Positions 36,160-50,072 of a stretch of 64,000 bases of DNA are shown piece by piece. Origin of the DNA: Waterburya sp. (GTDB lineage: Bacteria; Cyanobacteriota; Cyanobacteriia; Cyanobacteriales; Xenococcaceae); the NCBI GenBank assembly GCA_965217895.1, contig CBDCJV010000002.1:288001-352000 (forward strand). Reading direction: 5' to 3'. Positions within the stretch are counted from its first letter, which is position 1. The number at the start of each line of letters is the position of its first letter. Under the pieces are notes generated by a model. It worked only from the letters and a program-made list of their open reading frames with translations. It made no database searches and was not told where the DNA came from. The translations under genes were made by a program, and so were the position numbers.

Positions 36160-36188
36160 GTACGGGCGAACGGCCGTTCGCCCGTAAC
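36160..36188. repeat. REP-like palindrome
   Basis: GTACGGGCGAACGGCCGTTCGCCCGTAAC. Confidence 0.7.
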
Positions 36189-47485: not shown

Positions 47486-48400
47486 CTAAGTACAGGACAA
47501 AAGTTTTAAAGAATCAAAAAATTCAGACTGTTTTAAATCCAGATCTAAAAAAATAGATCGTAAGTAGTCCAAACCATAGCGAAAAATGCTTTTGGCTAAT
47601 CTTCCATGCTTCTTAATTTTAATGGGATTAGATTGATGTAACCATTCACCCATTTTGATTGCCCAGCATAGAGCCAGAGACATGAGAGCGACAAGCTTAC
47701 TTAACCGTTCTGGGTCAATAAAATGAGTAGACTCAAGACAAAATCCCCTAGTTTTGAACATTCCGAACAATGTTTCAATTGCCCATCGTTTTCCATAGTC
47801 GGAAATAGCTGTTTGAGAAGGGTCAGGGGCAACAACAATCAGCAATTCTCCGTTATCTAAACGCAGAGCAGAAACGTAAACAGAACGTCCCCAAACCCAG
47901 CGACGACCTGATAAAACCTGAGTCTGACCTGGTTTTAAGTTAGCGAAGATAATCGAAGCTCTTAAATCTTGTTTACCATTATTGATGCGATCGCTATGAC
48001 GTATTCTCAATCGAAAGGGAATAGTCGGCTCAATCAGAAGGTAAGTTAACCATTGTTTACCGACGAACTCTCGATCGCCTGTCAGAAAAGCTATTTCAGC
48101 CTCAGGAAACCTCTCATAGAAACTATCGAGTAAATCCATTCTTTCATCACTATTGGAATTACCCTTCTTCTTCAGCATTTTCCAGACGACAGGGTAGGCT
48201 ACACCTACACCATCATGAACTATTCCCAGCATCAAAATATTAAAGCGAGTTTGCCCAAATGACCATTCAGTTCTATCTGTACTTAGAACCCATGGTTGTG
48301 GAATCTCCATTATCTTCACTATTGCTTTAGCAATGACGGAGTAATCTAAGTCAAAATTACGAAAAAATCGCTGTAGACGCTTGTAACTAGAATCAGTTTT
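47486..48400 (-). mobile_element. IS4-family transposase element, 5'-truncated
   Basis: DRTEW, GDREFVG, YGKRWAIETLF (Y-2-R-3-E); end TTGTCCTGTACTTAG; frame extends upstream (DSSYKRLQRFF) to the IS982 IR. Confidence 0.88.
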
Positions 48401-48401
48401 A

Positions 48402-49932
48402 ACCTGAGTTCGGGATAAGGAAAGGGACAGGTAGTAAGCTGAAAATAACTACTTTATTCAACCAACCTGTCCTATGTTTAGTCTAGACGCTTTGTTTTGT
48501 GATGTAGATGATGTCTTGATTCAGTCGCTTCAAGTCGAGAAAGGGGTACTCCCCGCATCTGACCCGCCCAACGCGCTGAATCGCTTTTTGTCATCATTTT
48601 GAGCCTCAATGGAAAGCAAGATTGTTACATCATGGAGGAATTAAAAGAGTTAGGGCAAAAAGTCTCTGTCTGAGCGAGATTATGACAATTTTAATTGCCT
48701 TTCATCAGAATCATTATCGTACCCTCGTCAGTCGCTACAACGTGTCACAGACCCGCAACGCGCTGACTCGCAATTTCAAGCATTTCTATCTCGACTATGT
48801 AAAACAGCATTGGAATACGGCTTTTCCAGGACTTCCTAGCTATCAAAGGTTTGTCGAATGGACTCCTTCAACTCTCGTTCCCTTATGTGTCTATCTCAAA
48901 CATTGTTTTGGAAGCCCGACAGGTATTGGCTTTGTTGATGCGACTAGCCTCAAAGTTTGTCAACACGGTGGTTGTATAAGCTGGGGAAACCCCAGCATAC
49001 CCCACCGTCACAATCGCCGAATCAAACGGCATAAAGTCTTTGACGGTTTAGCTGCTCGTGGCAAAACATCAGTCGATTGGTTTTTTGGTTTCAAACTTCA
49101 TCTAATTGTTAATGAAGTTGGTCAATTATTAAATGCTCAATTAACTCCTGGCAATGTAGATGATCGTCGCCCTATTCCAGAAAGGACTTGTCCGCATCTA
49201 TTACTCAAAGGTCTTTTTGGTAAATTTTTCGCAGCTCGTGGCTATGTCTCCCAAAAGCTCGCTAATCAATTACTAGAAGAATTTGGGATTCAGTTTTTTG
49301 CTAAACCTCGGCTTCACAAGTAGCAGATAACAAGTAGCGCAGCCTGGAGGCTGCCGACGTTGCTCCGCAACGGCCAGACGCGAAGCGCGTCTGCAAGTTC
49401 AACCTCTGCCACAGCAAGCAAAGCTTGCAAAGTCGTCGAAGACGACGACATGGAGCGATAGCTCCTGTGTCAGACAAAGGGCTTGCCCGCATGTATTCAA
49501 GAGTTGAATTATTTTTTCACCTTTTCCTCATCAATGAAGAGGCTGCATATCCAACTTCGGAGTTTTTCTTAATTGCTATCTGCGCGAACGGTCGTTCGCC
49601 GCCTTTGCGAAGGAAAGTCGAGCCGCTCCACGCGGCTGCTACTTGCTACTTAACTCCGAAGGAGTTTGGTAACATGAAGAACAAGCTGATGCGTCTTCAT
49701 GACAAACTTCTTTCCCGTCAACGCTCTATTATTGAAACTATTAATGACCAACTGAAAAATATTTCTCAGATCGAACATTCTCGTCATCGATTGCGAAGCT
49801 AGCCGAAGGCATCGCCAGTCAATTTTTGCGTCAATGTTCTCTGTGGATTAATCGCTTATTGTCATCAACCAAAAAAACCTAGTCTGCGTCTTGATTGGCT
49901 TTTACCTCAATCTGCCTAACCCGAACTCAGGT
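48402..49932 (+). mobile_element. IS982-family insertion sequence carrying six internal hairpin insertions
   Basis: Terminal IRs ACCTGAGTTCGGG (48402) and CCCGAACTCAGGT (49932); transposase motifs [28 protein letters not shown]. Confidence 0.9.
48474..49919 (+). pseudogene. IS982 transposase interrupted by insertions
   Basis: MFSLDALFCDVDD...LLPQSA* reconstructed after removing 567 nt of inserts (879 nt left); the second DDE Asp appears as Ala (FAARGY). Confidence 0.88.
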
Positions 49933-50072
49933 TAACTAGCTTATAGTTCCCAAAGTAAGCTAATAATCGATCGATTTACTGATAATTTTTTTTCAAGATT
50001 TGTGCAAAGGAATTTTGTCAAAGATTCTAAGGATTTATGTTGTTTAAAACACAGTCTATATTTCAATGAAAA

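Follow-up and report, generated by a model that had tools for sequence, protein, structure and literature searches.

The 356-nt non-coding insert at 49313-49668 of the window (the whole 64,000-nt stretch of Waterburya sp. DNA analysed here) is real and mobile, being found in 28 copies at 17 sites of the genome and missing from an exact empty site. It is very probably a PATE, a non-autonomous element of the IS200/IS605 kind, and belongs to a cyanobacterial family whose ends have become stretched and filled with repeats. PATEs are gene-less elements moved by Y1 transposases (PMC4810608), and the family displays all four features by which they are recognized in PMC3119063. A preliminary description had offered a choice between a nest of mini-elements and a single structured element, MITE-like or ribozyme-like; it overlooked that the element is multi-copy, that TTAC in the flank serves as a target motif and that the minus strand appears to be the meaningful one.

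Boundaries, copies and target

The boundaries given in the preliminary description proved exact. As it had also noticed, the insert splits a codon of KPR-R-NMK; the codon is CGT and the host gene encodes a DDE transposase (PF13612). Comparison with a sister copy of the host transposon (G000:C2:169439-169444, G000 being this genome) revealed a site without precisely these 356 nt and without target duplication. Three more-diverged host copies were likewise empty. In the assembled contigs of three of the four sequencing runs, of which X1 and X2 represent one sample, 49312 was joined directly to 49669 with 0 shared letters; since these joins are accounted for by the sister copies, they fix the boundary but do not demonstrate excision. 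No circle junction occurred among the contig joints listed, contigs being liable to drop rare variants.

The host insertion sequence, which we take to belong to the IS982 family, carries other small inserts. One of 73 nt in the transposase gene (48512-48584) is missing from the sister copy and has one 87% relative at G000:C2:4432702-4432776, and further small hairpin inserts lie at about 48721-48771, 48959-49006, 49182-49199 and 49790-49815, the middle part of that at 48959-49006 being inverted in the sister copy. A second DDE transposase gene (PF01609; 47486-48319, minus strand) adjoins the host. The sole long frame through the window copy, of 125 aa on the plus strand (49425-49802), begins within the element and reads on, without a change of frame, into the final portion of the host transposase; it is probably incidental. 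With sizes of 112-363 nt, the elements are too short to encode a transposase.

A BLAST search of the element against the genome returned 15 long copies, which occupy 8 distinct sites. GTAA stands immediately 3' of every copy on the plus strand, and on the minus strand TTAC precedes the element at 8/8 of these sites. With the first 24 minus-strand bases as query and TTAC not required, 17 left ends were recovered and TTAC stood before every one of them, against a background of 0.005 per position. The full set comprises 28 copies, 167-363 nt in length and distributed over 17 sites, and every copy ends in TGAA; the search that produced this set demanded TTAC, and it was therefore not used as evidence for the target. 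A profile search of the genome gave the same 28 copies and one partial match. Half of the copies (14/28) are passive duplicates within three multi-copy hosts, and near-identical 300-nt copies are found in unrelated flanks at C2:141175 and C2:4809092. At three of the 17 sites the element lies in a DDE transposase gene, in the host sense at two and opposite at one. The GC skew of the genome is flat.

There is no terminal inverted repeat at the extreme ends, near-terminal palindromes being present at both; the paired arms are subterminal, starting near +18 and stopping 5 nt short of the end, and vary between lineages. A classical MITE was rejected, as the very ends lack a terminal inverted repeat and the target is not duplicated. 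On the minus strand, TTAC before the element, TGAA at its end and no target duplication are the signature of IS608/IS605.

Anatomy, predicted fold and cassettes

Read on the minus strand, TTAC is followed by hairpin 1, the left heptamer arm, an optional cassette, a block complementary to the 5' end, the left guide position and the left hairpin; beyond an A-rich spacer come the right guide position, the right hairpin, a second optional cassette, the right arm and TGAA (Table 1).

Table 1. Features of the window copy and its host (window positions).
Feature	Position	Strand	Evidence
Host insertion sequence (DDE, decayed), which carries several more small inserts	48400..49934	+	PF13612
Whole element, 356 nt; very probably a PATE-type non-autonomous IS200/IS605 derivative	49313..49668	-	Empty site; 28 copies
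Target/left cut motif TTAC, host DNA, unduplicated	49669..49672	-	8/8 BLAST-only sites; 17/17 left ends
Hairpin 1; 3' strand may instead pair with 49551-49564	49652..49666	-	Predicted
Left heptamer arm (AAGTAGC x2), continued at 49571-49583 beyond the cassette	49638..49651	-	Arm parse, alignment, fold
Left three-hairpin cassette, copy-variable, containing the core of the REP-like repeat	49584..49637	-	Copy comparison
Conserved block complementary to the element 5' end, closing the left linker	49551..49564	-	Type agrees with hairpin 1 in 34/43 rows; 2 mismatched, 7 unclassified
Left guide position, GCAG in this copy and AAAG in the majority of the family	49543..49546	-	Guide count at 17 sites
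Left subterminal imperfect hairpin, IP_L-like	49520..49542	-	Alignment A1: both-sided changes in 5/6 pairs
Small TTCAA/TTGAA hairpin; its end is the right guide position GAAT (49495-49498)	49495..49508	-	
20-nt hairpin insert in place of the normal right-hairpin foot	49475..49494	-	13 copies inside elements, 0 outside (this genome)
Right subterminal hairpin, IP_R-like; loop carries three further hairpins (49414-49465)	49403..49480	-	4-nt loop in short copies; alignment helix 3
Right three-hairpin cassette; layout is that of the left cassette read inward	49339..49393	-	Copy comparison
Right heptamer arm, complementary to the left arm	49318..49338	-	Arm parse, alignment, fold
Right cut motif TGAA, final bases of the element	49313..49316	-	17/17 sites

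All nine hairpins named in the preliminary description were present, its pairing of the ends was recovered as pairing of the terminal heptamer arms in the predicted fold, and the match between 49584-49600 and the REP-like palindrome at 36166-36182 was confirmed at 16 of 17 positions. Its emphasis on C-GNA-G loops was not borne out. On the plus strand C-GAA-G closes two of the nine named hairpins, with one more ambiguous, and in the minimum-energy DNA folds C-GNA-G accounts for 1 of 12 hairpin loops on the plus strand and 0 of 14 on the minus. A role for such loops is unsupported; loop orientation flips among the 28 copies, one hairpin reading GAA in 9 and the inverse in 10, and another AAG in 3 and CTT in 13.

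Both BLASTn and folding had been suggested as checks, and these gave a multi-copy element with a fold beyond that of all 100 shuffles (z = -5.69 as DNA and -6.79 as RNA; 0/100 equally stable). The left arm is predicted to pair with the right at a probability of at least 0.5 in 17/17 sites, and the complementary heptamer arms would thereby close the element into a panhandle. The two arms carry the same repeat class in 40 of 53 rows and different classes in none, the other 13 being unclassified, partly through a parser fault, and genome G260 has yet another arm type, again complementary. The mean pairing energy was -10.7 kcal/mol for an element's own arms, -5.2 across classes and -12.0 for arms of the same class from other elements. 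As same-class arms of other elements pair equally well, complementarity tracks the repeat class and not the copy, and the values make no case for selection on pairing. In a 26-row alignment the three helices (arm/arm, left hairpin and right hairpin), which were derived from these same rows, were paired in 87.2% of cells, compared with 76.2% when shuffled (0/500) and 38-48% when slid, and the 13 pairs with two-sided changes were not exceptional (42/500 shuffles).

Spacing is wide in this genome, the left guide being at +68 to +129 from the cut and the right hairpin 27-90 nt before the end, as against about 15-16 and 10 in IS608. Compact relatives (L372, L389, L430 and L434) have AAAG about 16 nt after TTAC, and guide spacing is described as flexible in GstTnpA in the accessible text of bioRxiv 10.1101/2023.03.14.532601. 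When the left-end fragment was folded, the 5' end was predicted to pair onto the core beside the guide (probability of at least 0.8 at 13/17 sites), while in the whole minus strand hairpin 1 was favoured at 12/17 sites with the arms paired, two rows being mis-anchored in these counts. As modelled, pairing of the 5' end beside the guide would bring back an IS608-like spacing, and the alternative pairings could form a fold switch.

The loops hold swappable cassettes, some of which also occur outside the element, and to this extent the idea of a nest of mini-elements was well founded, but the whole is one mobile unit. The REP-like core has 43 copies outside elements in the genome and is present in only two element copies; the middle hairpin of the left cassette has four copies outside. 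Copies that are otherwise near-identical carry different cassettes. At C2:1715540, a copy with the same flanks as seven siblings nevertheless has a left cassette of the window type, which indicates that cassettes were exchanged after insertion; odd guides could have arrived in the same way. The stretch at 49475-49494 has many short matches across the genus.

Similar repeats were also seen independently of the element. The REP-like palindrome at 36160-36188 is represented by about 43 core copies genome-wide, flanked mostly by GTAG and its complement. Three-hairpin cassettes occur in heptamer arrays outside the element at G000:C2:2542437, 4086831-4086915 and 3392155, one of the three having a right-end-like TGAA with the left end absent.

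Guides, cut sites and the search for a transposase

Guide and cut motif are related by base pairing, including a pairing rule for the fourth base. Among the 17 sites of this genome, AAAG forms the left guide at 11, GCAG at 3 and TGCG at 3, and the right guide is CAAT at 5, GAAT at 11 and AAAT at 1, every site ending in TGAA. The window copy is mismatched at both guides, with GCAG and TTAC on the left and, before the disturbed right hairpin, GAAT and TGAA on the right; as a family member it is degenerate or non-canonical. Across the host family, right ends usually combine GAAT with TGAA.

At the level of the whole family, guide bases match cut motifs, and the four bases at the hairpin feet and the cut sites covary. 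Outside this genome TTAC precedes hairpin 1 in 32 of 36 parsed elements, the profile having been seeded with TTAC and the parser having skipped 4 of 57 rows and cut or mis-anchored some others. As read by eye, the left guide AAxA is associated with TTAT at 13 of 17 sites; the exceptions have TGAT (L426), TTAA (L176) and TAAC (L374), with L428 ambiguous, while L390, L420 and L431 are exceptions with AAAG or AAAT guides. On the right, CAAT accompanies TGAA at 17 of 20 distinct sites from other families (misfits L392, L425 and L427; L378 and L379 being one site), AAAT accompanies TTAA in 8/8 copies of G260, CAAG accompanies TGAC in 2/3 and GAAT accompanies TCAA in L389; these covarying sites are clustered in few genomes and so are not independent, and boundaries other than TTAC come from flank comparison and not from empty sites. 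This covariation is the strongest evidence that a TnpA shaped the family. In IS608 the left cut motif TTAC has the guide AAAG and the right cut motif TCAA the guide GAAT, the guides stand at the 5' foot of each palindrome and the donor is restored without gain or loss; the first two guide/cut-site base pairs of our guide test were taken from this published work (accessible text of PMC3201880 and PMC5934647).

The skeleton of the element is more widely distributed. Matches at E 0.01, some of them fortuitous, were obtained in 25 of the 61 host-family genomes. Among the genome-collection matches it was recognized in 20 of 25, the remainder being chance matches or bare repeat arrays that were dropped, with record names of Xenococcaceae, Pleurocapsa, Myxosarcina, Hyella, Chamaesiphon and Prochloraceae, and it was also found in metagenome contigs among the matches listed. 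In a phylum-wide sample it was detected in 18 of 150 genomes from five families, at least four of the 26 loci viewed being bare repeat arrays. Every family member viewed was gene-less. Conventional gene-less IS605-like elements from other cyanobacterial families (L079, L081) have two features in common with it: TTGGTCTAAAGCC as the left block following TTAC, and a right end with a GAAT hairpin.

No autonomous parent with these ends was found in pattern scans of 39 genomes of the genus, 401 of the order and 101 of another family, nor in the genome and viral collections or among the metagenome matches listed; all copies obtained were gene-less. A profile search over Y1, TnpB and IscB loci likewise gave gene-less copies and no parent. 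The plasmid collection contained no match to the element. In this genome the sole match to PF01797 (Y1) is weak, short and frameshifted (L001:1998-2530; G000:C2:2354797 onward) and is presumably RAYT-like by motif, and tblastn with the TnpA of three relatives gave no match; by Y1 profile and tblastn, an intact IS605 TnpA appears to be absent from the genome. One intact 408-aa tnpB without tnpA is present (L002:1241-2467, on G000:C2), with ends unlike those of the family. Relatives L361 and L362 are autonomous TTAC-type elements with tnpA and tnpB, and their ends are GAAT/TCAA and not TGAA. An RRXRR (IscB) gene was not found in this genome, although 34 of the 61 family genomes have one.

A RAYT was rejected as the mover, the single Y1 match being short and frameshifted and the REP core being confined to two copies. 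An IscB origin was also rejected, as there is no RRXRR gene here and the end sequences are not shared. In the IscB-family loci L101, L110 and L111 the upstream RNA region appears to begin with TTCAA and not GTCAA, and it is unmatched by the Rfam HEARO model.

Proposed mechanism, alternative readings and known systems

On the mechanism that we infer, two ends of an IS605-group transposon would have been fused around a short A-rich spacer to leave a unit with no gene. A Y1 (HUH) transposase, TnpA, acting in trans, would bind the two subterminal hairpins on the single-stranded minus strand, cut after TTAC and after TGAA, and release a single-stranded circle that would be reinserted 3' of another TTAC with no duplication, with the four-base guide at the foot of each hairpin selecting the cut sites. 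Heptamer arrays may gradually have grown in both linkers, small hairpin cassettes may have entered the arms and loops, and cassettes may have been swapped between copies by recombination. Folding would return the distant cut site to its guide, and the family may be active at present.

The copies with mismatched guides bear on an altered reading of the same ends, in which either the folding of the element itself or a different HUH enzyme would determine the cut sites and the classical guides of these IS605-derived ends would be dispensable; the fold concerned would be either the 5' end paired with 49551-49564 or a panhandle of the arms that brings the two ends together. Consistent with this are the absence of AAAG from 6 of 17 sites here and from at least five TTAC sites in G019, the GAAT/TGAA mismatch common across the host family, the arm pairing predicted at every site, the predicted pairing of the 5' end onto the core in the left-end fragment (the whole element favouring hairpin 1) and the apparent lack of an intact IS605 TnpA. 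However, guides could be overwritten after insertion, as the exchanged cassette at C2:1715540 illustrates, foreign arms of the same class pair as well as an element's own, compact relatives with no left arm still occupy several sites, Haloquadratum PATEs too move without an intact tnpA according to the accessible text of PMC3119063, and the folds are model output. We regard this altered reading as improbable. It is also doubtful, if conceivable, that the element is a self-folding substrate whose arms hold the cut sites together, whose 5' end switches from a closed panhandle to an open state ready for cutting and back, and whose guide-mismatched copies still transpose to TTAC, ferrying foreign cassettes; if that were true, IS200/IS605 targeting would be set by DNA architecture and not by a four-base guide.

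The strong RNA fold also raises the question of an element acting as RNA, whether as a self-splicing, IStron-like intron or as a guide RNA scaffold for TnpB or IscB. The plus strand of the element ends in G, the IscB-family loci of relatives appear to begin with TTCAAC, comparable to the plus-strand start of some copies, and guide RNAs are often encoded by PATEs (bioRxiv 10.1101/2023.03.14.532601, accessible text). Against this, the Rfam scan proposed in the preliminary description gave no match at gathering score in the window and a best E of 3.9 in four loci. HEARO (RF02033) was silent on the element, although as a control it matched 1 of 6 loci and missed 4 of 5 IscB-family loci, so its sensitivity is limited. 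Elements lie in transposase-host frames on either strand, the base preceding the plus-strand start varies, and the A-rich interval between the two hairpins measures only about 25 nt in short copies. An RNA role is thus very unlikely, and a group I or II intron, an IStron and a ribozyme were rejected, there being no Rfam match, both orientations in host frames and no fixed splice-site bases; what stands of the proposed single structured element is a non-coding mobile unit of single-stranded DNA type. It is least credible of all that independent mini-elements and heptamer repeats accumulated in place with no movement as a unit. Cassettes are indeed variable and some are found alone, and half of the copies are passive duplicates in three multi-copy hosts, but the 17 sites have the same two boundaries and order of parts, near-identical copies lie in unrelated flanks, and the sister insertion sequence is cleanly without the whole 356 nt; identical boundaries at unrelated sites already contradict such an origin.

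As a PATE-type family, these elements represent a natural mutagenesis series for single-strand transposition, with two left and four right combinations of guide and cut site, linkers up to eight times the length of those in IS608 and copies at odds with the guide rule; all of the elements are small and easy to test. The cargo tolerance of the IS605 linker is evident from them and bears on TnpA-based tools, and the family is a vehicle for the spread of cyanobacterial heptamer and hairpin repeats. Neither automatic annotation nor a MITE finder that relies on terminal repeats would detect it. Knowledge of the basic mechanism is unchanged unless the mismatched copies are active. A match to a known intron or MITE family had been named in advance as removing the novelty; the kind (PATE, IS200/IS605) is known, and novelty drops accordingly. 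No description of this particular family was found in the literature searched, which included few subscription papers, and the cyanobacterial PATE family is apparently undescribed.

The arms and cassettes resemble, as we presume, the SDR and STRR repeats of cyanobacteria. The SDR and STRR repeats are mentioned in the accessible text of PMC5861425, and the arms and cassettes also resemble the GTAG-type REP repeats known in cyanobacteria (PMC3733652, accessible text); all of these are passengers, whereas in the element the whole unit moves. Nezha-type cyanobacterial MITEs are likewise small, non-coding, stably folded and multi-copy, but as described in the accessible text of PMC3184786 they have terminal inverted repeats and direct repeats, and the element has neither. 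ISC (IscB) elements and IStrons share IS200/IS605 ends with it, and some IscB-family loci of relatives appear to end in TGAA with CAxT at the hairpin foot; unlike these, the element has no ORF and no match to HEARO or a group I intron.

The element shares with the IS608/IS605 group TTAC 5' of the left end, lack of duplication, AAAG and (C/G)AAT at the hairpin feet and a right cut motif inside the element (PMC3201880 and PMC5934647, accessible text). It differs from IS608 in having neither tnpA nor tnpB, in ending with TGAA and not TCAA, and in the mismatched guides of the window copy. The closest resemblance in organization is to the PATEs of Haloquadratum and Geobacillus, which in the accessible text of PMC3119063 and bioRxiv 2023.03.14.532601 are also gene-less, with near-terminal palindromes, no terminal inverted repeat and no duplication, are invaded by smaller repeats and apparently move even where the genome has no intact tnpA. 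Unlike those PATEs, the present family is cyanobacterial, carries mutually complementary heptamer arrays of lineage-dependent type in both linkers, and has cassettes that are swapped between copies.
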